NCBI GenBank assembly: GCA_016194975.1
Contig: JACQAM010000007.1
Coordinates: forward strand, 255,947-319,946
Origin: Bacteroidota bacterium
Lineage (GTDB): Bacteria > Bacteroidota > Bacteroidia > Palsa-965
DNA length: 64,000 nt
Reading direction: 5' to 3'
The position numbers and the translations under genes are program-made. A model generated the notes under the pieces. The model saw only the letters and a program-made list of their open reading frames with translations. It was not told the DNA's origin and did no database searches. Positions 12,919 through 64,000 of this stretch are shown here, one piece after another (position 1 is the first letter of the stretch; each line of letters starts with the position of its first letter).

Positions 12919-13245
12919 TTATTTTATTTGATCAGCAATGAATTTCAATTCGGCGTCAGAAATTGTTGCCCGTTCCGATTTATCATAAATAGCAGCGAGG
13001 TAAACTGTGCGGGATACCACCCTGACCAATGTAATCACTCTTGCGCCGCCGCTTTTTCCTTTTCCTTTACTTGAAATTGCCATACGCACTTTATAGAAGC
13101 CATTTCCCAAAGGCGTACCCTGAACCGGATTTGTTTCAAGAGCAATAACAAGTTGCGAAAGATCCTTCCTTATGGAGCGATACTTTTTATAAAGTCGTTT
13201 GGCTTCTCTTTCAAATGAAGGAAGTACTTCAACCTTATAATTCAT
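12919..13245 (-). CDS. type II toxin-antitoxin system toxin, RelE/ParE superfamily
   Basis: 108 aa with …YKVRMAISSKGKGKSGGARVITL… typical of RelE/ParE-fold toxins. It overlaps the upstream small gene by 11 nt. Confidence 0.75.
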   Translation of the reverse strand: MNYKVEVLPSFEREAKRLYKKYRSIRKDLSQLVIALETNPVQGTPLGNGFYKVRMAISSKGKGKSGGARVITLVRVVSRTVYLAAIYDKSERATISDAELKFIADQIK

Positions 13246-13453
13246 TCAGGAATTTTTGTGCTGATCTTGATTTTAACTTTCCCTTCGCTGCCTGCTTCGC
13301 TTCCATCATTCCGGTCACTACATCCTGAACAAGTTTTTCTTTCTGTTTATTCACCGGTTTCTTTTCTGATACGTGAACAAAACCGAGACTCTTCATCAAT
13401 TCGAGGAAGAATTTATATTTTGAATCATCAATGGATACCGTGACCTGTTTCAT
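13235..13453 (-). CDS. putative antitoxin partner of the RelE/ParE toxin
   Basis: 72-aa basic ORF (MKQVTVSIDDSKYKFF…) immediately upstream of the toxin and overlapping it. Called by position and size only. Confidence 0.5.
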   Translation of the reverse strand: MKQVTVSIDDSKYKFFLELMKSLGFVHVSEKKPVNKQKEKLVQDVVTGMMEAKQAAKGKLKSRSAQKFLNEL

Positions 13454-13502
13454 GATGAACAAATTTACGAAAATGAATTCATACTGGCCGTGATTCATAT
13501 CT

Positions 13503-14750
13503 TTGCACAAATCATTTTTTGTGAGCGCAGAAAATCATTCGTTCGATGTGATCGTTGTAGGAGGAGGATGTGTCGGTTTAGCAGCGGCGTACAAGATCAA
13601 TCTTCGTCATCCTCATCTGAAAGTTGCGGTGCTTGAAAAAGAAGATCATCTTTCTCCGCACCAGACGGGACATAATTCCGGAGTGATACATTCAGGAATT
13701 TATTACAAGCCCGGTTCTTACAAAGCGAAAACCTGCGTTGACGGGAGAAGGGAGATCGTTGCGTTCGCCAAAGAACATAAAATCGCGATCGACATTTGCG
13801 GAAAATTAATTGTTGCCACGCACGAGAGCGAGCTCGCGCACATGAATAAAGTGTACAACAACGGCGTGGCGAATGGCGTGGAAGATCTCGAACTCATTGA
13901 CAAAAAAAGAATAAAAGAAATTGAACCGTTCGCCGAAGGTATCGCGGGCATACGCGTGGGCTGCACGGGCATCATTGATTTTCCGGCAGTAACGGTGAAA
14001 CTCGGTGAGCTGATCGAAAAACAATTTGAGGGAAGTAAAATTTTTCTTTCCACCGAAGCGAAAGATTTTGTGCACAAAGAAAATTCCACCGACATCATTA
14101 CGAACAAAGGAATTTTTAATGCAAAATATATTGTTACCTGCGGTGGATTGCAAAGCGATCGTCTCGCAAAAAAAGAAGGAGCAAAGTCAGACGCGGCGAT
14201 CGTGGGATTTCGCGGCGATTATTACGATCTCACGGAAAAAGGAATGAAAAAAGTGAATCATCTCATTTATCCTGTTCCGAATCCGAAGTATCCTTTTCTC
14301 GGTGTGCATTTCACGCGCATGGTTCATGGCGGGGTGGAATGCGGGCCGAACGCAGTTTTTGTTTTCAAGCGCGAAGGTTATGGAAAAACATCCTTCAGTT
14401 TCCGCGATACATTTTCCGCTTTCGGTTTCGGCGGCACCTGGAAATTCTTTGCGAAGAATATGAAATTCGGTTTCGATGAATACCGTGGTGCATTCTCAAA
14501 AAGATTTTTCCTGAAACGATTACGCACACTTATTCCTTCACTCGAAAAAGACGACATCGTTTCTTCGCGCAGTGGCGTACGCGCAATGGCGCTCTCACGC
14601 GAGGGAAACATGATCGATGATTTTAAAATTGAAACCAATAAAAATGCGATCCACGTTCTGAACGCTCCGTCTCCGGCTGCTACTGCATGTCTTGCAATAG
14701 GAAAAGCGATAGAAGAAATGGCAACGGAAAAATTTGCTCTGGCGAGATAA
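13503..14750 (+). CDS. lhgO: L-2-hydroxyglutarate oxidase/dehydrogenase (FAD-dependent)
   Basis: FAD fold VIVVGGGCVGLA. Strong resemblance along the whole length to E. coli LhgO/YgaF (HQTGHNSGVIHSGIYY, HLIYPVPNPKYPFLGVHFTR, NAPSPAATA). Confidence 0.8.
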   Translation: MHKSFFVSAENHSFDVIVVGGGCVGLAAAYKINLRHPHLKVAVLEKEDHLSPHQTGHNSGVIHSGIYYKPGSYKAKTCVDGRREIVAFAKEHKIAIDICGKLIVATHESELAHMNKVYNNGVANGVEDLELIDKKRIKEIEPFAEGIAGIRVGCTGIIDFPAVTVKLGELIEKQFEGSKIFLSTEAKDFVHKENSTDIITNKGIFNAKYIVTCGGLQSDRLAKKEGAKSDAAIVGFRGDYYDLTEKGMKKVNHLIYPVPNPKYPFLGVHFTRMVHGGVECGPNAVFVFKREGYGKTSFSFRDTFSAFGFGGTWKFFAKNMKFGFDEYRGAFSKRFFLKRLRTLIPSLEKDDIVSSRSGVRAMALSREGNMIDDFKIETNKNAIHVLNAPSPAATACLAIGKAIEEMATEKFALAR

Positions 14751-14760
14751 CTGTGAAGGG

Positions 14761-14804
14761 GGAGGATTACGGATTTTCTACGGAGAATACAGATTACAGA
14801 TTGA
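14761..14804. repeat. copy of the GGAGGATTACGGAT…ATACAGATTACAGATTGA short intergenic repeat
   Basis: Shares both motif halves with copies at 15470-15555, 16616-16706, 17067-17107 and inverted at 17157-17196. Confidence 0.55.
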
Positions 14805-14837
14805 TCTAATCTACGGATCTCACATTCCACATGATTT

Positions 14838-14965
14838 GGTAGTGGCTCAGTTTGCTCTTTTCCGATTCAACTTCGCGCCTTGGCGCCTTCGCGGTTCCTA
14901 AACCATTCTTTTATTAAACCGCAAAGACGCTAAGGCGCTAAGAATTTTCAAACTGACCCACTACC
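14838..14965. mobile_element. MITE copy A (about 128 bp) with 17-bp terminal inverted repeats, flanked by the 8-bp direct repeat CATGATTT
   Basis: Ends GGTAGTGGCTCAGTTTG … CAAACTGACCCACTACC. Flanks CATGATTT at 14830-14837 and again at 14966-14973. Near-identical inverted copy at 51873-52000. Confidence 0.7.
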
Positions 14966-15021
14966 CATGATTTTCGTTTTCGATAAGTAATCACTACATT
15001 TCTTATCGCAACATCCCTGAC

Positions 15022-15456
15022 ATGAAATATTTTCTGCTTTTCTCCACATTCTTCTTCCTCCCGATGTTTCGGGACTCCATTCTCAATGCGCAGACCGATT
15101 CCACTTTTGTTGGCAAATGGACGTGCACGGTGGTCGCAGACGAAAGCAGCAGAAGTTCATACCTGGATCTCAAGAGTGATAGTACGTTCGTATCCGGATC
15201 TGATTCCAGCTTTAAAGACCTCAGTAAACAAATGGCGACGGGAATGTGGAAAATTAATTCAAAGGGAGAAATCATTCTCATTCCGAAAGACACAACGCTG
15301 GAAACGCATTATTTCGAACATGTCGATCACTGGAAATTCCATTATTGCCTGAACGAAAGGCATGGACAGACTTATCCTGTCGCCGTTATGGAGATGCAGT
15401 TTGATATTTATCTTGAGAAAATAATTCCAAAAGCAAAAAGAAAACGAGGCAGATAA
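15022..15456 (+). CDS. hypothetical secreted protein (paralog 1 of a tandem pair)
   Basis: Signal peptide. Mature part begins QTDSTFVGKWT. About 40% identical to the next gene. Confidence 0.55.
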   Translation: MKYFLLFSTFFFLPMFRDSILNAQTDSTFVGKWTCTVVADESSRSSYLDLKSDSTFVSGSDSSFKDLSKQMATGMWKINSKGEIILIPKDTTLETHYFEHVDHWKFHYCLNERHGQTYPVAVMEMQFDIYLEKIIPKAKRKRGR

Positions 15457-16615: not shown

Positions 16616-16706
16616 GAATTACAGATTACTCCATTACAAATTGAGCAACGACCGCTCCGGTTGAAAACAATTAATCTGTAATTTGTAATCAATATATCTG
16701 TAATCT
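16616..16706. repeat. inverted-repeat element built from ATTACAGATTAC / ATTACAAATT units
   Basis: Left AATTACAGATTACTCCATTACAAATTG; right reverse-complement GATTACAAATTACAGATTAATTG. It lies in the divergent promoter region. Confidence 0.45.
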
Positions 16707-17066: not shown

Positions 17067-17196
17067 GGAGAATTACGGATCTTGCGGGATACAGATTACA
17101 GATTGAAAAAAAATTTGAAACAAATACTTAATCAAAATCCAACGAACCACCCTTTCTGTAATCCGCATATTTGTATGATTCGTAATCCTCCCCCCT
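17067..17196. repeat. about 130-bp element with about 40-bp inverted ends of the GGAGGATTACG…GGATTACAG repeat family
   Basis: Left GGGAGAATTACGGATCTTGCGGGATACAGATTACAGATTG; right (reverse-complement) GGGGGGAGGATTACGAATCATACAAATATGCGGATTACAG. Confidence 0.5.
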
Positions 17197-17226
17197 GTTA
17201 GCTATCTTTGAACAACTAACCGGCGT

Positions 17227-26849: not shown

Positions 26850-29800
26850 ATGAAAAACCTTACTTCTTTCAGGGGAACTGCATTATTAATTGCTACAGCA
26901 ATAAGTTCCTTATTATTTTCCCAGTCTCCGAGTTATGTTTGGGCTAAAGGTGTTGGCGGAACCGGAGCAGACCAGGGAATGGTAAATAAAACAGACGGCG
27001 CAGGAAATGTGATCGTGGCCGGTACATTCAGCGGCACAGCAGATTTTGATCCCGGTGCCGGGACTGCCAATCTTATTTCTGCCGGCAGTACTGATATTTT
27101 CATTGCGAAATATAATTCCACTGGAGATTACACCTGGGCTTTTGGCCTCGGATCGACAAATAGTGATTCGCCCGGTGATTTTGCAATTGATGGTTCCAAC
27201 AATATTGTAGTTACCGGTGGATTCATTGGAACGGTAGATTTTGATCCGGGTGCAGGTGTAGCCAATCTTACTTCTGCAAGTGGAAGCACACCTGATATTT
27301 TTATTGCGAAATATGATGCTTCAGGAAATTATGTTTGGGCAGAAAGGATAGGAAGCAGTACCGGTGGTGACCAGGGAAAAGGAATTGCTTTTGATTCGGG
27401 TGGAAATATTATCATCTCCGGATATTTTTTCGGTACGGCGGATTTTGATCCTGGTGCAGGAACAGCAAACCTGGTTTCTTTCGGATCGTTTGATGCCTGC
27501 CTCGCCAAATATGATGCTTCCGGAAATTATATCTGGGCAAAAAAAATGGGAGGAGTGAGTTCGGATCAGGGCGGTCGTATCGCTATTGATGGCAGCGGCA
27601 ATATAGACTTCACGGGCACTTTCAATGGAACTGCAGATTTTGATCCTTCTGCCGGGGTTGCCAATCTTACTTCAGCCGGAGCTACCGATATTTTTCTTGG
27701 TCAATATAATTCTTCAGGAAGTTATTTGTGGGCCGACAGGATCGGTGGAACTCTTGCTGATCAGTCGAGCGGAATTGGTACTGATGGAAGTAATAATGTT
27801 TTGTTGAACGGATATTTTAACGGAACAGCCGATTTTGATCCGGGTGCCGGAACTGCGAATCTTGTTTCTGCAGGAGGAAGTGATATTTTTCTTGGGAAAT
27901 ATTCTTCGGCCGGAGCTTATGTATGGGCTGGTAAAATGGGTGGAACACTCACTGACCAGGGATCCGGATTGGTGGTTGACGGTAGTGGTAATTCATATAC
28001 AACAGGTTTGTATACCGGCGCTGCAGATTTCGATCCTTCTGCTGCGAATGCAAATCTTATTTCTGCCGGCTCAACCGATGCGTTCATGGCCATGTATAAT
28101 TCTTCCGGTGCTTATGTTTCAGCAAAATCAGTTGGAGGAACCGGTGGCGATGCCGGAAATAATATTACTCTGAATTCTTCCGGCGATCTTATTGTAGCAG
28201 GATATTTTTCCGGCACTGCAGATTTTGATCCTTCTGCTGCAACAGCAAATCTTGTTTCTGCAGGAAGCACAGATATTTTTTACGGAGATTACCTGATGTG
28301 CACTTTTGCTACCGCTTCACTTTCTTCACAAACTAATGTGAGTTGTAATGGCGGAAGTGATGGAAGTGCAACAATAACTGCTGGTGGTGGAAGTAGTTTC
28401 ACTTATTCATGGGCTCCATCCGGTGGTACTGCGGCAACAGCTTCCGGATTGACCGCCGCAACTTACACATGCACCGTCACAAATCAATGCGGAAATACTG
28501 CAACGCAAACAGTGATCATTACTCAACCTATTGCAATTACTTCATCCATTTCTTCTCAAACCAACGTAACATGCAATGGAGGAAATGATGGTTCTGCAAC
28601 AGTGAGCGCTTCCGGCGGTACCGGCGCATTCACTTACAGTTGGTCACCAAGTGGTGGATCTGCTGCAACAGGAACTTCTCTTTCCGCGGGTACCTATACC
28701 TGTACGATCACTGACGCGAACGGATGCACGCATACGCAAACTGCAACTATTACTCAGCCATCAGGAATTCTTTCATCAATCTCATCACAAACCGACAATA
28801 CTTGTTTCGGCGGATCATCCGGATCCGCTACAGTTTCTGCTTCCGGCGGAACCGGTGCATTAACTTATTCCTGGTCACCAAGCGGTGGAACTGCTTCAAC
28901 TGCCAGCGGCCTTGCTGCAGCGACATACACATGCACGATCACCGACGCGAGCGGATGCACGCACACGCAAACTGTTACCATTACTCAACCAACAATTATC
29001 ACAACATCTGTTTCTTCACAGTCAAATGTAAGTTGTAACGGGGCGAATGACGGATCAGCTACTATTGCTGCTTCAGGTGGAACACCGGGTTATACTTATT
29101 CATGGGCACCGAGTGGCGGATCGGCTGCTTCTGCATCCGGACTTTCTCCGGGAACATACACGGTGACAGTGACCGATGCCAATGGTTGTGTTGTAACACA
29201 AACCCTCACTATTACTGAACCAGCCGTTCTCGTCGCTTCAACCGGTGGCAACGCTACAATCTGCGCCGGATCTTCAACAACACTTACAGCAGGATCGTCA
29301 GGCGGAACAGCAGTGGTAACTTTCAACTGGATGCCCGGTTCTCTCAGCGGAAGTTCTGTTTCTGTAAGTCCGGCCGCTACTACTACTTACACTGTTACTG
29401 CTACCGATGCTCATGGTTGCACCAGTACAGCAACATCAACCGTAACTGTAAATCCTTTGCCAACTGTAACCGCTTCTGCAAGTCCGGCAAGCATGTGTTC
29501 AGGAAATTCTTCTACGCTTACTTCAACCGGTGCAACAACCTATTCCTGGAATCCCGGATCGATGAGCGGTGCAAGTGTTTCAGTTTCTCCAGTGGCAACA
29601 ACAACTTATACTGTAACAGGAACAGATGGAAACGGATGTGTGAACACAGCTACAGTTACCGTCACGATAAATAATTGTGCGGGATCTATGCTTACTCCAA
29701 CATGGTGCGGGGCAACACTCACTTCAATGACGCAGAATTTTTACTGGACCGCAACATCGGGCGCAACCAATTATCACATTCGTGTACAGAATGCTTCATT

Positions 29801-44370: not shown

Positions 44371-46968
44371 ATGAAAAAATTTTTACTCGTTGCAGCACTT
44401 CTTTCCGTAAGTAGTCTCGCGAAATCGCAGGCGCTTGCTGCTTCCTCTTCTCAAACCGATGTCACCTGCTTCGGCGCGTGTAACGGATCTGCAACTGTCA
44501 TTGCATCCGGAGGAACTTCTCCATACTCTTACAACTGGTCGCCGAGCGGCGGTACCGCGGCAACTGCGAGTGCGCTCTGCGCCGGAAATTATACTTGCAC
44601 AGTTACTGATGCCGTTTTCGCTTCGGTGAATGTTACGGTCAACATCACACAACCCACTCCAATTACTATCAGTCCTTCGCAGCAGAATGTTTCATGCAAT
44701 GGAGGAAACGATGGCCATGCACTCGCAACGGTAAGCGGCGGCGCGGGATTTTTCACTTACTCATGGTCGCCCGTCGGTGGAAATGCACCGATTGCTAATT
44801 CCCTGACTGCGGGAATTTATACCGTCACTGTCACGGATGCAAATTCATGTACAGCTTCCCAAACATTTCAGATCACAGAACCTCCCGCACTGAGCGCAAC
44901 AAATGCTATTGTAAATGTAAGTTGCTTTGGCGGGTCAGACGGAAGTGCCGTGGTAACTGTCAATGGCGGAACTCCCGGTTATATGTATTCCTGGGCGCCG
45001 GGCGGATACACCACTGATTTTGCAAACGGGCTCAGCGAAAATCTTTATCTCGTTTCCATCACGGATCTCAATGGTTGTTTTCTCCGTGACACGGTCAACA
45101 TAAGCGCTCCTTCGCAATTAACGAGTTCAATTACAGGAACAGATGTTACCTGTTTCAATTCCAATGACGGAACAGCAATGATCACAGTCAATGGCGGCAC
45201 CGGGCCTTTCAATTATTCCTGGGCGCCGAATGGTGGATCCGGGAATACACAAACGGGGCTTTCAGCAGCCACCTATACGTGTAATGTTACAGATGCGCAT
45301 GGTTGTACTACAACACAAACCATCGATATCACGGAACCGGCGCCGCTTTCTTCGATTGATTCGCAAACCGACGTAAGTTGTTTCGGTGGCAGCAACGGAT
45401 CTGCATCAGTGAGTGTAAGCGGCGGCAATGGATCCTATTCTTACAACTGGTCGCCCTCAGGAGGAAATTCTTCTATGGCGGGCGCACTCATGGCCGGAAG
45501 TTATTCCTGTACCATCACCGATATCAATGGATGCATGCTTACCGAAACTTTCAGTTTAACAGAACCATCGCTTATCACTGTTGTAGGTTCGCAGTTCGAT
45601 GCGTCATGCAGTGGCGGCAATAACGGCAGTGCGACTGTAAATGCAAGTGGAGGAACGGGGCCGCTTACTTATTCCTGGACAAGCGGCGGAACGGCCGCAA
45701 CAGAAACTTCGCTGTCGGCAGGATCTTACACCTGCACAGTTACAGATATGAATGGTTGTGTTGCAACACAAACCTTCGTTATCACGGAACCAGCTGCGAT
45801 GACTTCGAACGCGATGATCACCGGTGTCACCTGTTATAATTTCAACAACGGAAGCATCACGCTCAATATGAATGGCGGAGCGGCTCCTTATAATTATTAC
45901 TGGTCCGATTTTTCCAATAATGCTTATGATTCGATGCTCGTTGCCGGAGTTTACACACTCACCGTGCAGGATGCAAACAGTTGCGTTTTCAATGATACAT
46001 TCACTGTTTCTCAACCTGCACCGCTTTCATTTGTGGTAACGCAAACTGACATTTCTTGTCACGGTAATAACGATGGAACTGCTTCCGTAACTCCATCCGG
46101 TGGAACCGGCCCCTATACTTATTTGTGGAATACCGGGAATACTTCTTCATCACTCACCGATCTTTCACAGGGAATTTACACTTGTGTTGTTACCGATTCG
46201 AACGGATGCGTTGATTCAGCACAGGCATCTATTTATGATCCGGGACAATTGGTAGCATTTGTACAGGCGGTGTTGAATCCAACAACATGTGGCGCTTCTG
46301 ATGGCGGAATTAATATTGCAATGACCGGTGGAACACAACCTTTCATTTACCAATGGAGTAACGGCGATACGATCGAAGATCTTTACAATATTGCTGCCGG
46401 TGTTTATTCACTCACTGTAACTGATGCGCATGGTTGCGTTGGAACTGCACTTGCAACACTCAGCGATCCGAATGCTCCTGTTGTTGCAATGACGCTGCCG
46501 GAAACTTTCATTTGCATTGACGATGATACACTCCTGATTTCCGGTATTCCTGCAGGAGGAACTTTCACCGGCAATGGAATGAATGGAAGTGTTTTCGATC
46601 CATCTCTCGCCGGGTTGGGTCAAAGTGTGATAGCGTATGCGTACACGGATACGAACGGATGTTTGGGCGCGACCACTGACACGATCACTGTGGATCCGTG
46701 TACAGGAATACAGGTGAATGCCGATTATTCTCAATGGAATATTTTCCCGAATCCTACGACCGGTGATGTTTTTATTACTGCTTACGTGCCAACAGAAGAA
46801 CCTGTGCATGTTCAGCTTTTTTCTTCAGAAGGAAAATTGATCCGCGATGTGGAATGGAATACAAAAGATGAAATGCATTTCGGAATACAGGACGAGGCAA
46901 GCGGCATTTATCTTGTGAGAATTATTTCTGCAGATTCTGAAAAATCATTCCGCATCATCAGGCAATAA
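44371..46968 (+). CDS. secreted T9SS cargo protein with about 8 SprB repeats and Por C-terminal sorting domain
   Basis: Signal peptide. Repeats (SQTDVTCFGxxNGSATVxASGGTxPYSYNWSPSGGTAAT…TYTCTVTD…). C-terminal module shared with the 47130 gene. Por tail. Confidence 0.8.
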   Translation: MKKFLLVAALLSVSSLAKSQALAASSSQTDVTCFGACNGSATVIASGGTSPYSYNWSPSGGTAATASALCAGNYTCTVTDAVFASVNVTVNITQPTPITISPSQQNVSCNGGNDGHALATVSGGAGFFTYSWSPVGGNAPIANSLTAGIYTVTVTDANSCTASQTFQITEPPALSATNAIVNVSCFGGSDGSAVVTVNGGTPGYMYSWAPGGYTTDFANGLSENLYLVSITDLNGCFLRDTVNISAPSQLTSSITGTDVTCFNSNDGTAMITVNGGTGPFNYSWAPNGGSGNTQTGLSAATYTCNVTDAHGCTTTQTIDITEPAPLSSIDSQTDVSCFGGSNGSASVSVSGGNGSYSYNWSPSGGNSSMAGALMAGSYSCTITDINGCMLTETFSLTEPSLITVVGSQFDASCSGGNNGSATVNASGGTGPLTYSWTSGGTAATETSLSAGSYTCTVTDMNGCVATQTFVITEPAAMTSNAMITGVTCYNFNNGSITLNMNGGAAPYNYYWSDFSNNAYDSMLVAGVYTLTVQDANSCVFNDTFTVSQPAPLSFVVTQTDISCHGNNDGTASVTPSGGTGPYTYLWNTGNTSSSLTDLSQGIYTCVVTDSNGCVDSAQASIYDPGQLVAFVQAVLNPTTCGASDGGINIAMTGGTQPFIYQWSNGDTIEDLYNIAAGVYSLTVTDAHGCVGTALATLSDPNAPVVAMTLPETFICIDDDTLLISGIPAGGTFTGNGMNGSVFDPSLAGLGQSVIAYAYTDTNGCLGATTDTITVDPCTGIQVNADYSQWNIFPNPTTGDVFITAYVPTEEPVHVQLFSSEGKLIRDVEWNTKDEMHFGIQDEASGIYLVRIISADSEKSFRIIRQ

Positions 46969-47129: not shown

Positions 47130-50003
47130 ATGAAATCAAAATTCTACATGAAATGGAATGCATTGCATGCACGTGTTGCGGCAATGAGTTTTGCGATCCT
47201 GCTGTTGTTCAATCTTCATTCAGATGCGCAAACTGTTTACACATTTACCAGCGCGGCTGCCACTGGCGTTAATGGCCCTACGCAGGCGCAGGTGAACACA
47301 GCTTATACTTCAACAACACTTGCCGGAGCTGTTACTGTTGTAAGTAATGGAATTCAGCAATGGACAGTACCTGCAACAGGAAATTATACCATTGAAGGAT
47401 ACGGAGCGCAGGGAGGAAACGGAACCGGATTTAGCCTGATCGGTGGAAGAGGCGCTTACATCAAAGGAACATTTAATCTCACTGCTGGAACTGTTCTCAA
47501 TATTGTTGTAGGACAGATCGGCGCTGATGCAAGTTCAGGAAGTTCTGGTGGCGGCGGAACTTTTATTTACACAGGTGCAATTGGCGGCGCAGGATTAATG
47601 ATCGCTGCCGGTGGTGGTGGCGGAACAGGACACAACGTTGCGAATGGTGGAAACGGAAGTGCAACGAGTACTCCCGTTAGCAGCGGAACAGGAAGAGGAG
47701 ACGGCGGATACCAGGGATTAGGAATGGGTGGAAATGGTGGATCAGGTGTTGGAGGATATTCTGCAACGTGGAATAATGCTGCAGCTGGTGGTACAGGTTG
47801 GGGAAGTAGTGGACTCGCAGGATTTTTCCAGGGCGATGTTACTTATCAGAGTAATCCGGGAACAAGATTCACCGGAGGATATCATGGAACTGTGAATACA
47901 GATTTTCCCGGCGGATTTGGTGGAGGTGGTGGTTGCGGTGGTTGGGGATATTCTGGTGGTGGTGGCGGTGGATACACTGGTGGCGGTGGTGGAGATGACT
48001 GGGACGGAAATTCCGGGCCGTGCTCTTGCGGCCATGGCGGTGGACAAGGTGGTGGAAGTTTCAATTCAGGAACAAGTCAAACCAATACTGCCGGTGTAAG
48101 AAGCGGGGACGGAACTCTGATCATCACTAACATTTATTCAGCTACAACTGCAGTTTCATCACCAATCACTTGCAATGGCGCATCGAATGGTTCTCTTACT
48201 GTAACGGTGACCGGCGGAACGAGTCCTTATACTTATTCATGGGCGCCAACAGGAGGAACTGCTGCAACGGCTAGTGGATTATCTGCGGGAACTTATACCG
48301 TAACCGTAACTGATGCTACTTCCGCAGTTACTACAAGTACATTCAATCTTACACAACCGTCAGTAATCTCTACTTCTGTTTCTTCGCAAACGAACGTTTC
48401 CTGCAATGGCGGATCGAACGGAGTGATCAACGTTTTTGTTACCGGTGGAACACCCGGCTACGCTTACTCGTGGGCGCCATTGGGGGGAAGTATGGCAACG
48501 GCATCCGGCCTTCCTGCAGGAACCTATACCTGCACGGTCACCGATGCGAATGGTTGTACTGCAACACAACCTGCCGTCATAACACAACCAACGGCAATTA
48601 CAACTTCTGTTTCGGCTCAAATGAACATTACCTGCAACGGAGGCAACAACGGATCTGCAACCGTCACTCCTTCCGGAGGAACTCCGGCCTATTCTTTTTC
48701 CTGGTCACCATCGGGAGGAACCTCTGCATCGGCTTCCAGCCTGCCGGTAGGGTCATATACCTGCACGGTCAGCGATGCCAATGGTTGTACTGTAACACAA
48801 ACCGTGATGATCACAGAACCTACGGCTATCGTTACTTCGGTTTCTTCACAGACGAATGCAACCTGCAATGGAAACATGGACGGATCTGCAACAGTTGCTG
48901 CTTCGGGCGGAACCGGCGCTTATACTTACATGTGGAGTCCGACCGGTGGTTCTACGGCTATGGCAACGGGACTTGGTGCCGGAAGTTATTCCTGCACGAT
49001 CACGGATGCCAATGGTTGTACTGCAACACAAACACTCAGCATCACAGCACCGATGACGGTCACGTCTTCCGTTTCCAGCCAGATGGATGCTACATGCAAC
49101 GGAGGAAGCGACGGATCAGCTACGGTAATGGCTTCCGGAGGAACCGGGCCTTACACTTACGCGTGGAGTCCAATGGGAGGAAATGCTGCAATGGCAGCAG
49201 GACTTTCAGCCGGAACTTATTCCTGCTTGGTCACGGATATGAATGGTTGTACTACAACACAAACCGTTATGATCGCTGAACCTTCGCCGATCATTGTAAC
49301 AACAATGGGAACTGATCCTACCGGATGCGGCGCAAATGACGGGTCTATAACCATGTCTGTGAACGGCGGAACACCCGGATATACTTTCATGTGGAGCAAC
49401 AGTGCGACGACACAGAATATTTCCGGACTCACCGCAGGAACCTACACCTGCATCATTACCGACATGAACGGATGCAGCGCGAATGGAAGTGCAACACTGG
49501 TGGATCCGAATCCTCCAACGGTGACTTTGAATATTCCGACTTCGACTATTTGCTTCGATGATGCCACACTCGCATTGACCGGTGAATCTCCTTCGGGCGG
49601 AACATTCAGCGGAAGTGGTGTAACCGGAAATTCATTCGATCCTTCGGTTGCGGGAAACGGAACACAAGTGATCACTTATATGTTCACTGCCACCAATGGA
49701 TGCTCCGGTACAGCAATGGATTCTATAGTTGTTGATCCTTGTACAGGAATCCGGAATGCAAATTCCAATTCAACATGGAATCTTTATCCGAACCCTACGA
49801 CGGGCGAAATTTTCATCACAGGTTCATTGCACCAGGAAGTCCGTGTACAGTGTTTCACCTCTGATGGAAGAATGATCCGTGATTTCATGATGATCCCGAA
49901 TGATAATTCGAAATTCAGTTTGAGCAATGAAGCGAGCGGGCTTTACCTCGTGCGCATCATCTCTTCTGAAAAAACAGAATCGTTCAGGATCACCAAACAA
50001 TAA
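47130..50003 (+). CDS. secreted T9SS cargo protein: N-terminal glycine-rich domain, about 8 SprB repeats, Por C-terminal sorting domain
   Basis: Signal peptide. About 250-aa Gly-rich region (…GAQGGNGTGFSLIGGRGAYIKGTF…GGGGGYTGGGGGDDWDGNSGPCSCGHGGGQGGG…), then SprB repeats and a tail paralogous to the 44371 gene. Confidence 0.8.
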   Translation: MKSKFYMKWNALHARVAAMSFAILLLFNLHSDAQTVYTFTSAAATGVNGPTQAQVNTAYTSTTLAGAVTVVSNGIQQWTVPATGNYTIEGYGAQGGNGTGFSLIGGRGAYIKGTFNLTAGTVLNIVVGQIGADASSGSSGGGGTFIYTGAIGGAGLMIAAGGGGGTGHNVANGGNGSATSTPVSSGTGRGDGGYQGLGMGGNGGSGVGGYSATWNNAAAGGTGWGSSGLAGFFQGDVTYQSNPGTRFTGGYHGTVNTDFPGGFGGGGGCGGWGYSGGGGGGYTGGGGGDDWDGNSGPCSCGHGGGQGGGSFNSGTSQTNTAGVRSGDGTLIITNIYSATTAVSSPITCNGASNGSLTVTVTGGTSPYTYSWAPTGGTAATASGLSAGTYTVTVTDATSAVTTSTFNLTQPSVISTSVSSQTNVSCNGGSNGVINVFVTGGTPGYAYSWAPLGGSMATASGLPAGTYTCTVTDANGCTATQPAVITQPTAITTSVSAQMNITCNGGNNGSATVTPSGGTPAYSFSWSPSGGTSASASSLPVGSYTCTVSDANGCTVTQTVMITEPTAIVTSVSSQTNATCNGNMDGSATVAASGGTGAYTYMWSPTGGSTAMATGLGAGSYSCTITDANGCTATQTLSITAPMTVTSSVSSQMDATCNGGSDGSATVMASGGTGPYTYAWSPMGGNAAMAAGLSAGTYSCLVTDMNGCTTTQTVMIAEPSPIIVTTMGTDPTGCGANDGSITMSVNGGTPGYTFMWSNSATTQNISGLTAGTYTCIITDMNGCSANGSATLVDPNPPTVTLNIPTSTICFDDATLALTGESPSGGTFSGSGVTGNSFDPSVAGNGTQVITYMFTATNGCSGTAMDSIVVDPCTGIRNANSNSTWNLYPNPTTGEIFITGSLHQEVRVQCFTSDGRMIRDFMMIPNDNSKFSLSNEASGLYLVRIISSEKTESFRITKQ

Positions 50004-51521: not shown

Positions 51522-51872
51522 TTTCGGGTTATTACGAATCCTGATAATTTTAAGTGGTGAGTGACGATGAATTGTTTTCGGTTTACTGTTTCCGGTTTTT
51601 TTAAAGCAATAATGTTTGCATTTTTTTTTGCAAACAAGTTCACAGGAAGACACAGGAGAGAATAATTTGTGATGAAGTTTTTTCGCATAGCCCCGATGGT
51701 GCGCCTTTACCGAACGCGTTCGGGATTGCGCACCAGCGGGAAGACAGGAAATAAGAAGTGATACAGGTGCGCTTCAAAATAAAAAAATGAGAAGCTGCCG
51801 TATTCAAGTTCACTTTCTCACCAATATTTTTTCCGACTGCCGTTGCCGCTTGCTCCTTTGGAGCTGATTTCT

Positions 51873-52000
51873 GGTAGTGGGTCAGTTTGAAAATTCTTAG
51901 CGCCTTAGCGTCTTTGCGGTTTAATAAAAGAATGGTTTAGGAACCGCGAAGGCGCCAAGGCGCGAAGTTGAATCGGAAAAGAGCAAACTGAGCCTCTACC
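51873..52000. mobile_element. MITE copy B (inverted relative to copy A), flanked by the 8-bp direct repeat TGATTTCT
   Basis: GGTAGTGGGTCAGTTTG … CAAACTGAGCCTCTACC. The interior is essentially identical to the reverse complement of 14855-14948. TGATTTCT sits at 51865-51872 and 52001-52008. Confidence 0.7.
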
Positions 52001-52100
52001 TGATTTCTGCTTAATTCCCCAATACAACTTTTCTTGCTAAATTTGCGCCCTTTAACACCAATGGGTAGTTTCAAAACACCCTGATCAATCAATAACAACT

Positions 52101-54497
52101 ATGAACGAACAACTTATTTATCTGGTTCCCGCATTGGGAATTCTCGGACTCATTTTCATGATCCTCAAATCGGCGTGGGTGAGTAAACAGGATGCGGGAA
52201 ACGATCGCATGAAAGAAATTGCAGGATATGTTTCAGAAGGAGCGATGGCATTCCTGAAAGCTGAATATCGCATTCTCGCAATTTATGTCGTACTCGCCGG
52301 CAGCGCACTCGGTTGGTTGAGCCAAGAGGTAACTACTTCTCACATTCTTATCGTCGCTGCATTTGTTTGCGGATGTATTTTTTCTGCACTCGCCGGATTT
52401 TTCGGAATGCGAATCGCTACAAAAGCAAACGTTCGCACAACGCAGGCGGCGAGAACTTCTCTTGCAAAAGCACTGAGAGTTTCTTTCACCGGCGGAACAG
52501 TGATGGGACTCGGTGTTGCCGGACTCGCAGTTCTCGGACTAAGTATGCTCTTCATTATTTTTTTCCAGTTTTTCATGCAGAGTTCACTTGCGAATGGCGG
52601 ATATGAAAAAATGACGCAGGTACTTGAAGTGCTCGCAGGATTTTCTGTGGGTGCAGAATCGATCGCGCTTTTCGCTCGTGTGGGCGGTGGAATTTATACC
52701 AAAGCCGCAGATGTTGGAGCCGATCTCGTTGGAAAAGTAGAGGCAGGAATTCCGGAAGATGATCCGCGTAATCCCGCAACCATTGCAGATAACGTTGGTG
52801 ATAATGTGGGTGACGTTGCAGGAATGGGCGCCGATCTTTTCGGATCGTACGTCGCAACAGTTCTCGCGTCGATGGTGCTGGGCAATTATGTGATTCGCGA
52901 TATGGTTGCAGCGAATGGAAATTATGATGTGATCCCGTTCAAAGGACTCGGCCCCATTTTTCTTCCACTCATGATCTCTGCTGCAGGATTATTCGCTTCC
53001 ATCATCTCCAGTTATTTTGTGAAGGTTGCCGACAATGCAAAAACAGATACACGTACCGTACAACGGGCACTCAATATCGGAAACTGGTCTTCGATTCTTC
53101 TCTCGCTCGTAGCCGCTTATTTTCTCATTCAGCAATGTTTGCCTGCAACAATGAACATCAGTGTTTTCAACGCGGGTGAATTCGGAAAAGCAACTACAAC
53201 AAGTATGCATATTTTCTATGCGGTGATGATCGGAATGTTTGTAGGTGGTGCAATTTCATTTATCACCGAATATTTTACCGGCCTCGGCGGGCGTCCTGTA
53301 AGAGGCATCGTCGAAAAATCTGCGACAGGTGCAGCAACAAATATTATCGCCGGGCTCGGAACAGGAATGTTATCTACTGCACTTCCTGTAATTCTTTTCG
53401 CAGGTGCGATCTGGGGCGCGTATTCACTCGCAGGATTTTACGGAGTAGGAATTGCAGCGTGCGCGATGATGGCGAACACCGCAATGCAATTGGCGATCGA
53501 TGCATTCGGTCCCATTGCAGACAACGCCGGCGGAATTGCAGAGATGAGTGAACTTCCTGCAGAGGTTCGAGAGAAAACAGACGTACTCGATTCAGTTGGA
53601 AATACAACTGCTGCTATCGGGAAAGGATTTGCAATTGCATCCGCAGCGCTTACTGCACTCGCACTTTTCGCTGCTTACGTAACATTCACCGGCATCAACG
53701 GAATAAATATTTTCGATGCAAAAGTTCTCGCTGCGTTATTTCTCGGCGGAATGATCCCGGTTGTTTTCTCCGCGCTCGCTATGAATTCGGTTGGTAAAGC
53801 AGCAATGGATATGGTGAATGAAGTACGCCGGCAGTTCCGCGAAATACCCGGCATCATGGAAGGAAAAGGAAAACCTGAATATGCAAAGTGTGTTGCTATT
53901 TCCACGAAAGCTGCATTGCGCCAGATGTTATTGCCGGGCGTGATCACGATCGTAACTCCAATCATTGTTGGATTGGTGATGGGCGCAGAAGCGCTCGGTT
54001 CTTATATGGCAGGCGTAACCGTGAGCGGTGTACTCTGGGCAATTTTCCAGAACAATGCCGGTGGTGCGTGGGACAATGCAAAAAAATCTTTTGAAAAAGG
54101 TGCGGAGATAGAAGTGAACGGCAAGAAAGAAATTTTTTATAAAAAATCTGATCCGCATAAAGCGGCTGTCGTTGGTGATACGGTTGGTGATCCTTTCAAA
54201 GATACTTCCGGCCCGTCGATGAATATTCTCATCAAGCTTTCCTGTCTCGTTGGACTCATGCTTGCACCACTTCTCGCCGGACACAATGCTACCGCAATGA
54301 ACAACATGTGCAAAGGAAATTCCTGCTGCACCCAGATGATGAATATGAAATGCGATCTGAATAAATGCATGCACATGACGCAGCAACAATGCGCGCAGTA
54401 TTGCGACTCGATGAAATGTACGCCCGAAGAAAAAGAAATGTGTTTGAAACATGCAATGGGTGGAAGCTGCTACGATTCGACAAAGTGCAATAAGTAA
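52101..54497 (+). CDS. hppA: membrane-bound (K+-stimulated) H+/Na+-translocating pyrophosphatase with an unusual Cys/Met-rich C-terminal extension
   Basis: Multi-transmembrane protein with the M-PPase conserved segments (…DNVGDNVGD…, …GDTVGDPFKDTSGPSMNILIKL…). Length 798 aa. Confidence 0.9.
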   Translation: MNEQLIYLVPALGILGLIFMILKSAWVSKQDAGNDRMKEIAGYVSEGAMAFLKAEYRILAIYVVLAGSALGWLSQEVTTSHILIVAAFVCGCIFSALAGFFGMRIATKANVRTTQAARTSLAKALRVSFTGGTVMGLGVAGLAVLGLSMLFIIFFQFFMQSSLANGGYEKMTQVLEVLAGFSVGAESIALFARVGGGIYTKAADVGADLVGKVEAGIPEDDPRNPATIADNVGDNVGDVAGMGADLFGSYVATVLASMVLGNYVIRDMVAANGNYDVIPFKGLGPIFLPLMISAAGLFASIISSYFVKVADNAKTDTRTVQRALNIGNWSSILLSLVAAYFLIQQCLPATMNISVFNAGEFGKATTTSMHIFYAVMIGMFVGGAISFITEYFTGLGGRPVRGIVEKSATGAATNIIAGLGTGMLSTALPVILFAGAIWGAYSLAGFYGVGIAACAMMANTAMQLAIDAFGPIADNAGGIAEMSELPAEVREKTDVLDSVGNTTAAIGKGFAIASAALTALALFAAYVTFTGINGINIFDAKVLAALFLGGMIPVVFSALAMNSVGKAAMDMVNEVRRQFREIPGIMEGKGKPEYAKCVAISTKAALRQMLLPGVITIVTPIIVGLVMGAEALGSYMAGVTVSGVLWAIFQNNAGGAWDNAKKSFEKGAEIEVNGKKEIFYKKSDPHKAAVVGDTVGDPFKDTSGPSMNILIKLSCLVGLMLAPLLAGHNATAMNNMCKGNSCCTQMMNMKCDLNKCMHMTQQQCAQYCDSMKCTPEEKEMCLKHAMGGSCYDSTKCNK

Positions 54498-60261: not shown

Positions 60262-61920
60262 ATGAAAAACCTCTTTACCCTATTCTTCCTTTTAATTTCT
60301 TCTGCAATTTTTTCTCAAACTCCCGGCTGGAACTGGTCGCGTGTTGCCGGAGGAGAGAGTTACGATCTCGGAAGTTGTATTGCCACTGATAATTCGAACA
60401 ACGTGATCACGTGCGGATATTTTTACGGCGACACGGTTTTTTTCGGCACACATACTTTGCTTAACAAAGGCCTCAACGATTTTTACATTGTGAAATATGA
60501 TGCAAATGGAAATGTGGCCTGGGCAACGAGTGAAGGTGGTGCTGGTGATGATTATGCAATTGCGCTCGCGCCTGATGCTTCCGGAAATATTTATGTCACC
60601 GGTTATTTCACCGGCGATTCGCTCATCATCGGTAACGACACCTTGTTGAATGCATCGGCCGGCTACGGAGATATTTTTGTGGCGAAATATAATTCGAATG
60701 GAATTCCCCAATGGGCAAAACGTTTCGGCGCGGGCGACTGGGATATTGCGCAAGCGGTAGCGGTTGAACCTTCTACAGGAAATTTTTATGTGGCCGGATG
60801 TTATTACAACAGCACGATCACTATCGGAACAAATACATTCACCAACAACGGACTTTACGATGTACTGCTGATAAAATTCGATCCTTCCGGAAATGTGAAG
60901 TGGGCAAAACATTCCGGCGGCTCGCTCAATGATATGGGCAATGCAGTGGCGACAGATAACTTCGGAAATATTTATATCTCCGGTGGATTTGCAAGTGATT
61001 CGCTCACGTTCGGCACAACTACTTTGCATAATGCAGGCCCGGGTTATCCCGATATTTTTGTTGCGAAATATGATTCGGCAGGAAATTTCCGCTGGACAAA
61101 ACGCGCTGGCGATTCGCTGAACGATCATTCTGTTTGTGTGGCCACTGATAATTCCGGGAATTGTTTTGTAGGCGGGCATTATCACAGCGCCTCATTTCAA
61201 TTTGCAAGTACTACGATCACGAACAATGGAATGGGCGATGTGTATTTGTTGAAATATGATTCTGCAGGAAATGAATTGTGGGGAAGAGGCCAGGGCGGAG
61301 CGATGCATGATTTCGGTTATGCAGTGGCGGTAGATGCGGTGGGAAATTCCTACATGAGCGGAATGTTCAACAGTTCGTCAATGACAATTGGCACAACAAC
61401 GCTAACAAATTCTTCCATGAGCAGCCAGGATATGTTTTTATACAAATACGATCCTTCCGGAAATCCGTTGTGGGCGATTAGTGCAGGAGGAATGACGGAC
61501 GATGAAATGAATTCCATTGCCATCGGATCTTCCGGCGCAATATACGCGACCGGCGACTGGAGAAGCCCGATGATAAATTTTGGCCCCGATAATTATTTCA
61601 ATGAAGATTCCACGATCGGTTATGCCGATATTTTCATTGGGAAATTAGATGTGATGACGGGAATGAGTACTATGAGTGAAACAAAAAATATTTTTCTGTA
61701 TCCCAATCCTTCGAATGGAATTTTCACCATCCGGAATAATTTTTCCGAAACTTTTGAACTGCAAATTTTCAATTCACTCGGACAGGAAATTCTTCGCAAA
61801 GAAAATCTGAATGAAAATAATTTTGAAATTGATCTGGGCAGTGAAGCCAATGGAATTTATTTCATGAAGGTAATGAGCGATGAAAATATTTATTCGGAAA
61901 AAATAATCATTGAGAAATAA
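60262..61920 (+). CDS. secreted SBBP beta-propeller-repeat protein with Por C-terminal sorting domain
   Basis: Signal peptide. About 9 repeats of (…GDIFVAKYNSNGxxxWAKRFGG…). Tail TKNIFLYPNPSNGIFTIRNNFSETFELQIFNSLGQEIL…IIIEK. Confidence 0.8.
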   Translation: MKNLFTLFFLLISSAIFSQTPGWNWSRVAGGESYDLGSCIATDNSNNVITCGYFYGDTVFFGTHTLLNKGLNDFYIVKYDANGNVAWATSEGGAGDDYAIALAPDASGNIYVTGYFTGDSLIIGNDTLLNASAGYGDIFVAKYNSNGIPQWAKRFGAGDWDIAQAVAVEPSTGNFYVAGCYYNSTITIGTNTFTNNGLYDVLLIKFDPSGNVKWAKHSGGSLNDMGNAVATDNFGNIYISGGFASDSLTFGTTTLHNAGPGYPDIFVAKYDSAGNFRWTKRAGDSLNDHSVCVATDNSGNCFVGGHYHSASFQFASTTITNNGMGDVYLLKYDSAGNELWGRGQGGAMHDFGYAVAVDAVGNSYMSGMFNSSSMTIGTTTLTNSSMSSQDMFLYKYDPSGNPLWAISAGGMTDDEMNSIAIGSSGAIYATGDWRSPMINFGPDNYFNEDSTIGYADIFIGKLDVMTGMSTMSETKNIFLYPNPSNGIFTIRNNFSETFELQIFNSLGQEILRKENLNENNFEIDLGSEANGIYFMKVMSDENIYSEKIIIEK

Positions 61921-61927
61921 TTTTTTC

Positions 61928-63313
61928 ATGAAAACGAAATTCATTTTAGTTTTTGCAATCATTATCTTAGGTCTGCCATTTTATTTTTCTGCCCAGACTT
62001 TTAGCGGTGGTTACCAGCATTCACTCGCAATCTGTAGTGATCATACCGTAAAAGCGTGGGGAAATAATAGTTCGGGTGAGTTGGGAATTGGCAATACAAC
62101 TGATAGTTATTTTCCTGTTACGGTTAATTCTCTCACCGGGATCATTGCTGTTTCTGGCGGCGGCGGTTTTTCGATCGCGTTGAAAAATAACGGAACACTT
62201 TGGGCATGGGGTGATAATTCTACAGGCGAACTCGGAAATGGAAATAATGCAAGCAGCAATATTCCCGTGCAGGTTACGAACTGGACCACAGGTTATGTTT
62301 CGGTTGATGCAGGTTTCGACCATTTACTTGCAATAAAACCTGACGGAACCGTCTGGTCTTGGGGAACGAATACTTACGGGCAACTCGGAATCGGAAATTT
62401 CTCCAATAGCAATGTTCCTGTTCATGTTTTAGGTTTGACAGGAATTATCGCTGTGTCGGCAGGAAATGGAAATTCTCTCGCGTTGAAAAATGACGGAACC
62501 GTGTGGGCATGGGGACTGAATCATTCGGGCCAACTCGGCATCGGTGATACCGCGAACAGAAATCTTCCTGTGCAAATAAATATTACAAACATTATTTCTA
62601 TTTCTGCTGGTTATGCTCATTCGCTCTTTCTCAGGAATGACAGTACAGTTTGGGGCAGTGGTTGGAATGTTTATGGACAGCTCGGAACCGGAAATAATAT
62701 CAGCAGTAATACTCCAGTGCAATCAACGGGTCTTTCTGGAATAATTTCCATTACTGCAGGATGCGGACATTCGAATGCCTTGAAAAGCGATGGAACAATT
62801 TGGGCGTGGGGAGAAAATATGTCCGGTGAACTCGGTGACGGGAATGGTGAATTTGCAAGCAACGTTCCGGTCGCGGTTGCATTTCTCAACGGAGTTTCTA
62901 CAATAGGAATTGGCGGCAGGCAATCTTTTGCTCTGAAAAACGATGGAACATTCTGGACGTGGGGACAAAATAATTATGGACAACTCGGAAATGGAAATAC
63001 AAATGACAGCCCTGTTCCTGTGGAGTTGAATGGATTTTGCCAGGTTGCGGCTTCAGTAAATGAAATTGAAGAAACAAAAAATATTTTTCTGTTTCCCAAT
63101 CCTTCTTCCGGAATTTTCACAATCAGAAATAATTTTTCAGGAAATTATCAAATAGAAATTTTCAATTCACTCGGACAGGAAATTTTGCATAATGAAAACC
63201 TGAATGAAAATAATTTTGAAATTGATCTGGGCAGTGAAGCCAATGGAATTTATTTCGTGAAGGTAACGAGCGATGAAAAAATTTATTCACAGAAAATAAT
63301 TATTGAGAAATAA
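61928..63313 (+). CDS. secreted RCC1-repeat beta-propeller protein with Por C-terminal sorting domain
   Basis: Signal peptide MKTKFILVFAIIILG. Seven repeats of (…WxWGxNxxGQLGxGNxxxxxxPVxV…). Tail almost identical to that of the preceding gene. Confidence 0.8.
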   Translation: MKTKFILVFAIIILGLPFYFSAQTFSGGYQHSLAICSDHTVKAWGNNSSGELGIGNTTDSYFPVTVNSLTGIIAVSGGGGFSIALKNNGTLWAWGDNSTGELGNGNNASSNIPVQVTNWTTGYVSVDAGFDHLLAIKPDGTVWSWGTNTYGQLGIGNFSNSNVPVHVLGLTGIIAVSAGNGNSLALKNDGTVWAWGLNHSGQLGIGDTANRNLPVQINITNIISISAGYAHSLFLRNDSTVWGSGWNVYGQLGTGNNISSNTPVQSTGLSGIISITAGCGHSNALKSDGTIWAWGENMSGELGDGNGEFASNVPVAVAFLNGVSTIGIGGRQSFALKNDGTFWTWGQNNYGQLGNGNTNDSPVPVELNGFCQVAASVNEIEETKNIFLFPNPSSGIFTIRNNFSGNYQIEIFNSLGQEILHNENLNENNFEIDLGSEANGIYFVKVTSDEKIYSQKIIIEK

Positions 63314-63320
63314 TTTTTTC

Positions 63321-64000
63321 ATGAAATCAAAATTCATTTTAGTTTTTTTATTTTTTATTCTATCGGCAAATATTTTCGCGCAGGGAAACTGGTTGTGGGC
63401 GAAGAGTGCGACAGGCGCGAGTCCCGATGAAGGTTTTGCCGTTTGTACTGATACGGCAGGAAATGTTTTTGTTACAGGAGAGTTTCAAAGCCCCATCCTC
63501 ACTTTTGGATCTGTCAATCTTGTGAACACCGGTGCGTGGGATATTTTCATTGCTAAATATGATCCGAACGGAAACGTTCTTTGGGCAAAAAGAGCGGGTG
63601 GCGGAAGTGGTGATGAGGCATTTTCAATTTGCGCTGATCAAAATGGAAATATTTTTATCACGGGAACCTATTCCAGCTCTTCTATTACTTTCGGAAGCAC
63701 GACAATTACGAACGCCGGCGGCTATGATATATTCATTGCCAAGTATGATGCGAATGGAAATGCACTTTGGGCGAAAAGCGAAGGAGGAACAGGCACTGAT
63801 GTTGGTTATGGCGTAAGTGCAGACGCAACCGGAAATGTTTATTTAACCGGATATTTTTTCAGTCCGACGATGACCATCGGCACAACTCTCCTTACCAATG
63901 CAGGCAGCAGCGATATTTTTATTGCCAAATACGATCCGAACGGAAATGCGCTGTGGGCGAAAAGTTGCGGATCAACAGGAGGTGATGAAGGTGTCTCCGT
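63321..64000 (+). CDS. secreted SBBP beta-propeller-repeat protein, 3'-truncated by the window edge
   Basis: Starts MKSKFILVFLFFILSANIFAQ at the same IIIEK*-TTTTTTC-ATG junction. Repeats …GAWDIFIAKYDPNGNVLWAKRAGG… Open to the end of the window. Confidence 0.7.
   Translation, partial: MKSKFILVFLFFILSANIFAQGNWLWAKSATGASPDEGFAVCTDTAGNVFVTGEFQSPILTFGSVNLVNTGAWDIFIAKYDPNGNVLWAKRAGGGSGDEAFSICADQNGNIFITGTYSSSSITFGSTTITNAGGYDIFIAKYDANGNALWAKSEGGTGTDVGYGVSADATGNVYLTGYFFSPTMTIGTTLLTNAGSSDIFIAKYDPNGNALWAKSCGSTGGDEGVS

Follow-up and report, generated by a model that had tools for sequence, protein, structure and literature searches.

The DNA examined here is a 64,000-nt stretch (positions 255,947 to 319,946; hereafter the window) of contig JACQAM010000007.1, from a Bacteroidota bacterium of the Palsa-965 lineage (assembly GCA_016194975.1), in which two intergenic spacers each hold one copy of a 128-bp element, a putative miniature inverted-repeat transposable element (MITE). 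Copy A lies 88 nt past the stop codon of a DAO-domain gene (PF01266) that ends at 14750, and 57 nt before the start codon of the first of two paralogous genes (starts at 15022 and 15503), whose products are small proteins with N-terminal hydrophobic leaders predicted from sequence. Copy B lies between a gene for a DUF5723 outer-membrane protein, 100% identical to an NCBI protein with locus tag HY064_05910, and an H+-pyrophosphatase gene (PF03030) that starts at 52101, 100 nt after the element. An earlier annotation made from the letters alone (hereafter the sequence-only reading) had given copy B this position and had placed copy A between lhgO and a secreted paralog pair; the placement of copy A stands, while the name lhgO is confirmed only as far as the Pfam DAO domain. 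The two copies are oppositely oriented relative to local transcription.

The 128-bp element and its two copies

By direct reading, copy A spans 14838-14965 and copy B 51873-52000, mutually inverted, as the sequence-only reading had them. A repeat search of the window returned the pair as a 128-nt inverted repeat with 99% complementarity, and in a pairwise alignment that included the flanks, the copies were identical at 127/128 positions, with identity falling to background exactly at both boundaries. The sole mismatch, which had been noted earlier as a single terminal-repeat substitution, is a T to A change at position 6 of the left terminal repeat. The parts of the element are as follows, with the basis of the call in brackets where one was recorded.

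14838..14965, + strand: putative MITE copy A, 128 bp (sequence, inverted pair with copy B, alignment limits)
14838-14854, + strand: left end of copy A, GGTAGTGGCTCAGTTTG, 17 bp (sequence)
14838..14855, + strand: left terminal inverted repeat of copy A, GGTAGTGGCTCAGTTTGC, 18 bp, with C at positions 9 and 18 where the consensus has G and A
14949-14965, as read on the forward strand: right end of copy A, CAAACTGACCCACTACC; reverse complement GGTAGTGGGTCAGTTTG
14948..14965, - strand: right terminal inverted repeat of copy A, GGTAGTGGGTCAGTTTGA in minus-strand reading, equal to the 18-bp family consensus
14830..14837, no strand: left target-site duplication of copy A, CATGATTT (sequence)
14966..14973, no strand: right target-site duplication of copy A, CATGATTT (sequence)
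14871..14896, + strand: interior hairpin arm 1, CTTCGCGC CTTGGCGC CTTCGCGG TT, three tandem 8-nt units plus TT
14917..14942, + strand: interior hairpin arm 2, AA CCGCAAAG ACGCTAAG GCGCTAAG, the complement of arm 1 with 4 mismatches
51873..52000, - strand: putative MITE copy B, 128 bp, opposite orientation (sequence, repeat search, alignment)
51873..51889, + strand: terminal repeat of copy B, GGTAGTGGGTCAGTTTG, counterpart of the right end of copy A
51984..52000, - strand: terminal repeat of copy B, GGTAGAGGCTCAGTTTG in minus-strand reading, with A at position 6
51865..51872, no strand: left target-site duplication of copy B, TGATTTCT (sequence)
52001..52008, no strand: right target-site duplication of copy B, TGATTTCT (sequence)
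51896-51921 and 51942-51967: interior hairpin arms in copy B

The 17-bp ends, which had been called a perfect inverted pair, are complementary at 16/17 positions in copy A, where GGTAGTGGCTCAGTTTG and GGTAGTGGGTCAGTTTG differ by C versus G at position 9, and at 15/17 positions in copy B. Within the window, the terminal 17-mer occurs four times with 0-1 mismatch, with 0.11 occurrences expected by chance at ≤3 mismatches; a fifth match (3 mismatches) is unrelated. Each copy has its own direct repeat, as the sequence-only reading had observed, and in both cases the duplication is 8 bp and cannot be extended to 9 bp. The two sequences differ (CATGATTT vs. TGATTTCT), and the chance of two independent perfect 8-mer duplications is ~(1/65536)^2. 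The reconstructed, predicted empty target sites of the two copies are CACATTCCACATGATTTTCGTTTTCG and GGAGCTGATTTCTGCTTAATTCC. Since homology goes no further than the terminal repeats and the 8-bp duplications of the copies differ, the sequences support two separate insertions and not a segmental duplication, a preference that the earlier annotation had also expressed and that elements with the same ends elsewhere (see below) bear out.

The element has no coding capacity of its own, and only spurious open reading frames (ORFs) enter it from the flanks. Copy number observed within the window was two, and the graphs assembled from two runs are interrupted within the element: Logan assemblies of SRR12113409 and SRR12113410 carry the same genes as the window, and their contigs end ~30 nt into copy B, on either side, which is how a repeat is expected to behave in a k = 31 graph. 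Logan contig L262 (labels beginning with L are our handles for retrieved contigs and loci), which reaches 2.1 kb past the window start, contains no further copy.

The self-complementarity of the interior, also remarked on earlier, was confirmed, as the three-unit arms pair with 4 mismatches and folding predictions give one extended hairpin for the whole element, at -29.9 kcal/mol (z = -6.9) as DNA and with z = -9 and -9.9 for the RNA of either strand. Three of the mismatches are G-U on one strand (RNA, -65.7 vs. -54.7 kcal/mol), and we asked whether this strand asymmetry might point to an RNA role. We dismissed it as insignificant because transitions always yield such asymmetry and the probability of all three falling on one strand is ~0.25.

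Conserved ends and an IS1-like transposase

To place the element among others, one genome per GTDB species was scanned for the pattern GGTAGNGGNTCAG, 87-117 nt, CTGANCCNCTACC (22 specified bases). At least 120 loci matched this two-end pattern, with ~2 expected by chance (our own arithmetic). The elements are 113-143 bp long, and the hosts among the matches listed belong to the Acidobacteriota, Nitrospirota, Verrucomicrobiota, Planctomycetota, Chloroflexota, Abditibacteriota, Omnitrophota, Bacteroidota, and Proteobacteria. Among 127 small elements with both flanks, 8-bp duplications were perfect in 60, had one mismatch in 26, and had two in 9. Because other elements with the same ends thus carry duplications, the concern raised in the sequence-only reading that the flanking 8-mers might be coincidental falls away. 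Duplications are 8 bp throughout the family and are weakly biased in composition, with C/G followed by A favoured at positions 1-2 and A scarce at positions 7-8. The string TGATTT, common to both targets in the window, was tried as a target motif and set aside, as family-wide duplications show this weak bias only and, since two sites are too few, nothing is concluded from it.

In 238 family ends, GGTAGTG was present in 92-100%, positions 1-13 being partly fixed by the search pattern. Positions 14-18, which the pattern leaves free, read T T T G/C A at 94, 94, 86, 71, and 67%, respectively, and conservation was at background from position 19 onward. Therefore, the functional end appears to be ~18 bp, GGTAGTGGGTCAGTTTGA. 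Position 6 is T in 92% of these ends and A in 1/238; the A found there in copy B may weaken that end. Interiors, by comparison, are unrelated between lineages, and a BLAST search of copy A against all elements matched the last 19-26 nt only. The GC-rich hairpin interior is lineage-specific passenger sequence and is not needed to recognise the family. In JACQCE01, a Nitrospirota metagenome-assembled genome (MAG) from groundwater, a MITE of 138-140 bp from this end family has at least 13 copies, most of them with their own 8-bp duplications (L014, L028, L029, L031, L033, L035, L042, L046, L049, L060, L066, L068, and L082), and these copies show strong amplification inside one genome. Extra single ends in L019 and L120, considered as full-length insertion sequences (ISs), proved to be orphan ends beside ordinary genes.

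These data also bear on whether the element is mobile at all. It might instead be a palindrome like the repetitive extragenic palindromic (REP) sequences and bacterial interspersed mosaic elements (BIMEs), served by a RAYT-type enzyme, or a duplicated structured RNA or regulatory hairpin gene. Such an origin would agree with the very stable hairpin (z = -7 to -10), with end positions 2-5 (GTAG), which resemble a REP head, and with the intergenic location of both copies near gene starts. REP/BIME and enterobacterial repetitive intergenic consensus (ERIC) sequences are likewise intergenic, strong but imperfect palindromes of similar size (~127 bp for ERIC). However, we consider a non-mobile origin extremely unlikely. 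Exact 8-bp duplications flank both copies, and 60/127 family members have perfect ones and 35 have ones with 1-2 mismatches; REPs are not known to make target-site duplications. The ~18-bp ends alone are conserved while the interior is not, the opposite of what is expected of a structured RNA, and the ends co-occur with a DDE transposase, not a Y1 enzyme. In contrast to this family, REP/BIME and ERIC sequences have neither a regular duplication nor a DDE-transposase partner. No Rfam match was found in the window at gathering thresholds, and a relaxed Rfam search gave only generic miRNA-precursor hairpin models at 19-23 bits, as against gathering thresholds of 60-160. The unit lies in no longer gene, so the possibility, allowed for in the sequence-only reading, that it is part of a longer gene or RNA also fails.

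The transposase was found on viral contigs. In IMG/VR, the 17-nt end alone matches at least 120 viral-contig loci, and inverted end pairs at these loci bound elements of 153 bp-4.8 kb, many with perfect 8-bp duplications. The longer elements encode a 270-300 aa protein with helix-turn-helix (HTH) and DDE parts. A transposase gene, in some cases a fragment, is carried by 35 of the 120 listed end-matched viral loci and by none of the 120 listed MITE loci. The 3' end of the full-length gene typically lies ~20-80 bp from the terminal repeat, and all transposases found next to these ends belong to one clade. Transposase-encoding elements with the same ends and 8-bp duplications include L131, L141, L156, L175, L265, and L266. 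Complete plasmids from cultured bacteria supply two annotated examples. On plasmid p_1 of Mesorhizobium loti 582 (CP050295.1, 470343-473712), a 3,370-bp element with duplication CGCTGGTG has perfect GGTAGTGGGTCAGTTTGA ends, i.e., 18 bp identical to the right end of copy A; unlike the window element, it is autonomous, far longer, and resident in an alphaproteobacterial host. Its genes are annotated as an IS1 family transposase, an HTH protein, a hypothetical protein, and a small protein termed "histone H1". A 2,634-bp variant element (L266 1267-3900; duplication AAGCCGAG) occurs on an Acidiphilium multivorum plasmid.

Profile searches connected these proteins to IS1. The NCBIfam model transpos_IS1 (NF033558) was the top model for 5/5 transposases (E = 1e-18 to 6e-14, 52-68 bits). 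Pfam DDE_Tnp_IS1 (PF03400) matched the L131 transposase with E = 1.4e-9 (38.8 bits, cut-off 24.1); three others fell short of it at 20-23 bits, and the L137 copy, which is aberrant at its C-terminus, gave no match. The N-terminus aligns with the HTH part of E. coli IS1A InsA (E = 1.6e-6), and the C-terminus, in four intact copies, aligns with the ER(H/Q)N region of InsB (BLASTP E = 2e-4 to 6e-4). Therefore, the protein appears to be a fusion of the InsA HTH with InsB as one ORF, without the InsA zinc finger. The two-ORF, -1 frameshift arrangement of classical IS1 (insA, insB) is absent, the ORF being continuous, and no N-terminal CxxC pairs of zinc-finger cysteines are visible. Since there is one ORF and no zinc finger, the clade would be a single-ORF branch and not classical IS1. 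Database searching gives at least 8,000 relatives at E ≤ 1e-10; many share 67-77% identity with the query, and many of the relatives listed are named "IS1 family transposase" by JGI or NCBI.

The DNA ends are also similar to those of the IS1 family (type, E. coli IS1; a single-ORF example is ISMae3 of Microcystis). The GGTAGTG found here conforms to GGnnnTG, and so do GGTAATG and GGTGATG at the two ends of E. coli IS1A; beyond GGTnnTG, however, the agreement is only ~8/17 bases. The IS1 target duplication ranges from 8 to 9 bp, so the 8-bp duplications are a further likeness. Many full-length members of this clade differ from IS1 in being 2-5 kb long with passenger genes, whereas the window element encodes nothing. 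Going by public annotation and by profile matches that are distant, the parent is most probably the IS1 family in its single-ORF form. The sequence-only reading had proposed a hAT-, IS256-, or IS4/IS5-like parent; the GGnnnTG ends and 8-bp duplications fit IS1 instead.

Mobilisation by another DDE family with such ends and duplications, IS6/IS26 or IS1595, was also weighed. GGnnnTG ends are a hallmark common to the IS1 and IS6 families, and IS6/IS26 shares the 8-bp duplications (PMC6807381). The end-linked transposases do give weak secondary matches to IS6 (E = 4e-6 to 8e-5) and IS1595 (E = 3.6e-6 to 2e-3). However, the IS1 model was best for 5/5 transposases, at 52-68 bits vs. 22-27 for IS6 and 18-27 for IS1595, and the IS6 scores were always below those of IS1 and far from the cut-off of the IS6 model (NF033587, 125 bits). 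Pfam's choice of DDE_Tnp_IS1, the public annotation as IS1 family, and the presence of a single clade beside these ends further argue against another family, which we regard as very unlikely.

Within the window, no transposase homologue was detected by tblastn with five cognate transposases (best E = 0.014 over 51 residues), as the earlier annotation had anticipated; mobilisation would therefore need a transposase in trans. An IS1-like transposase would be supplied from elsewhere in the genome or by an incoming phage or plasmid, would bind both ends, GGTAGTGG(G/C)TCAGTTTG(A/C), and would insert the element at a target cut with an 8-bp stagger, the repair of which would create the 8-bp duplications. 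Two intergenic insertions of this kind would have given copies A and B, and since the copies differ at only 1 of 128 bases, both would be recent. We infer mobilisation in trans, recency, and IS1-type chemistry from the structure of the element and from the established behaviour of DDE transposons.

We conclude that the element is very probably a MITE that has only the ~18-bp ends of a widespread clade of single-ORF (HTH plus DDE) IS1-family elements, and that it probably arose as a deletion or chimeric derivative. It resembles other bacterial MITEs (MITEAba12, Correia/NEMIS, archaeal SM3A, and SMN1) in being short, ORF-less, and intergenic, with terminal inverted repeats, a duplication of fixed length, a hairpin, and a presumed dependence on a transposase in trans. 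It differs from them in its IS1-type ends, near-constant at ~18 bp across many phyla, and in interiors replaced by lineage.

Several points weigh against this conclusion. The matches to IS1 models are distant, most lying below the Pfam cut-off and all below the NCBIfam cut-off (100 bits), and transposition of every family member is deduced from sequence evidence. A clean empty site was not recovered: L261, the nearest available relative (77% amino-acid identity in a neighbouring gene), is without the element across a syntenic 9.4 kb, and it shows no unoccupied target because the spacer is too diverged and rearranged and an extra gene blocks alignment across the target. Searches for the subterminal 24-mer of the window element gave no match in JGI metagenomes or in IMG/VR, and the right-end 29-mer likewise gave none in IMG/VR. 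This subfamily is known from two copies only, and copy number and transposase content pertain to the 64-kb window alone. A literature search found no paper giving these end sequences, literal matches being unrelated primers and sequences, and no papers on ISMhu11.

The transposase-encoding relatives have further features. Many full-length IS1-like elements lie on contigs classed as viral, and the passenger genes of several (L156 1262-6058; L157 2533-5183; L200 639-4892; L192 5511-10179; L266 1267-3900) are of defence or addiction type, including a MADS-like methyltransferase with a specificity subunit, HigA/spr1629-like HTH proteins, and a CcrM-like methyltransferase. Just beyond the right end of the Acidiphilium element lies a RES toxin/Xre antitoxin pair (L266 3883-4721). 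An ORF of ~70-100 aa with the motif NPAAVALGRKGGLKGGKARAAKL...ARW recurs in IS1-like elements, some of them without a transposase (L175 968-1243; L157 2597-2893; L240 4552-4824; L138 4068-4598; L137 3651-3893, - strand; L200 1874-2119; L192 8080-8373, - strand; L265 1075-1284). It mostly lies just inside one terminal repeat, reading inward, and is internal in L200 and L192. On the M. loti plasmid, this is the ORF annotated "histone H1". It has no Pfam or NCBIfam match and matches only the N-terminus of phrog_2384 (function unknown).

Octamer arms of the interior

The hairpin arms of the element form a module of three CTTNGCGN units plus GGTT, followed by AACC plus three NCGCNAAG units. In the window, this octamer-arm pattern occurs only within the two copies. 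The exact 22-mer GCGCCTTGGCGCCTTCGCGGTT was found in 18 JGI metagenome contigs, several of them GC-rich and one AT-rich, where 22-28 nt are identical to the arms and IS1-type ends are absent. On GC-rich contigs, other repeats of ~160-190 bp have such arms as their inverted termini. The AT-rich contig (288 kb) has arms scattered between genes at intervals of about 1 kb, and some of them flank a GxxExxY gene (TIGR04256, E = 4e-42) on either side. Occurrences of the arms in metagenome contigs are as follows.

L243: 5200-12300
L255: 1393-1556
L256: 1440-1590 and 2640-2790
L260: 699-880

Analogous octamer arms built of different units are present in other IS1-type MITEs, e.g., L012, L052, L007, L088, and L081. 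The recurring arms may be captured host repeats, may have converged, or may constitute a functional module. The element may be more than a stripped-down IS, namely a chimera in which IS1-type ends serve as the vehicle for an independently recurring hairpin module, a reading that we hold to be unlikely.

Surroundings of the copies and significance

A role for the hairpin in the host, acting between the upstream genes and the downstream promoters to block or attenuate transcription or to influence mRNA stability, would be compatible with a MITE origin, and several features of the setting are in its favour. Copy A sits between a stop codon (88 nt) and a start codon (57 nt), and copy B is inserted right behind a small hairpin, GCTCCTTTGGAGC (51852-51864), of which the duplication TGATTTCT is the T-rich tail. 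Copy B also ends 38 nt upstream of a TAAATTTG box (52038-52045), which stands in the sole block conserved with L261. The Bacteroidota -7 promoter consensus is TAnnTTTG, and the box fits it. In Microcystis, intergenic IS1-like insertions reduce the expression of neighbouring genes (PMC11448079), a precedent for an effect on expression. However, the copies lie in opposing orientations with respect to local transcription, there are only two of them, and no terminator-like site was called for the element in sigma-70 promoter and terminator scans, which were uninformative and are ill-suited to Bacteroidota. Because the element appears to be very young, there would have been little time for selection on such a role. 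An added host role is therefore, in our estimation, rather unlikely.

The spacer to the left of copy A contains the short repeats tacggat and acagattac. It is also matched by an inverted sequence of 30 nt at 17178-17207 (80% complementary), and a 30-nt palindrome is nearby; the stretches concerned are 14745-14837, 16617-16683, and 17178-17207. Logan contig L002 ends at ~14789, 49 nt short of copy A; this break and the repeats may reflect another repeat or a variant there. Farther left, a pair of small minus-strand genes (12919-13510) separates a uroporphyrinogen decarboxylase gene from the DAO-domain gene; in the Logan annotation, one product is a match to PF06296 RelE, so the pair may be a toxin-antitoxin module. 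Elsewhere in the window, very large secreted-protein genes (26961-29335, 44442-46436, 47130-50003, and 60400-64000) have tandem coding repeats of 231 nt and ~195 nt. These repeats, of SprB type and SBBP type, with Por_Secre_tail, dominate the direct-repeat families of the window.

The element is well-supported but ordinary mobile DNA, and our understanding of transposition is unchanged by it. Its identification explains the two near-identical 128-bp repeats and the short-read assembly breaks at them, and it marks what would be recent insertions near the starts of a hydrophobic-leader (putatively secreted) gene pair and of an H+-pyrophosphatase gene. The family to which it probably belongs comprises MITEs together with transposons of 2-5 kb, whose cargo includes restriction-modification-like, toxin-antitoxin-like, and methyltransferase genes; its members often lie on viral-classed contigs. 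Since the GGTAGTGGGTCAGTTTGA end and the transposase are little changed across many phyla, this end could serve as a cheap annotation marker for mobile DNA in MAGs. Only the breadth of the family and the octamer-arm module go beyond routine annotation. If that module were functional, as a protein-binding array or as an RNA or DNA structure under selection, these MITEs would spread it across phyla.

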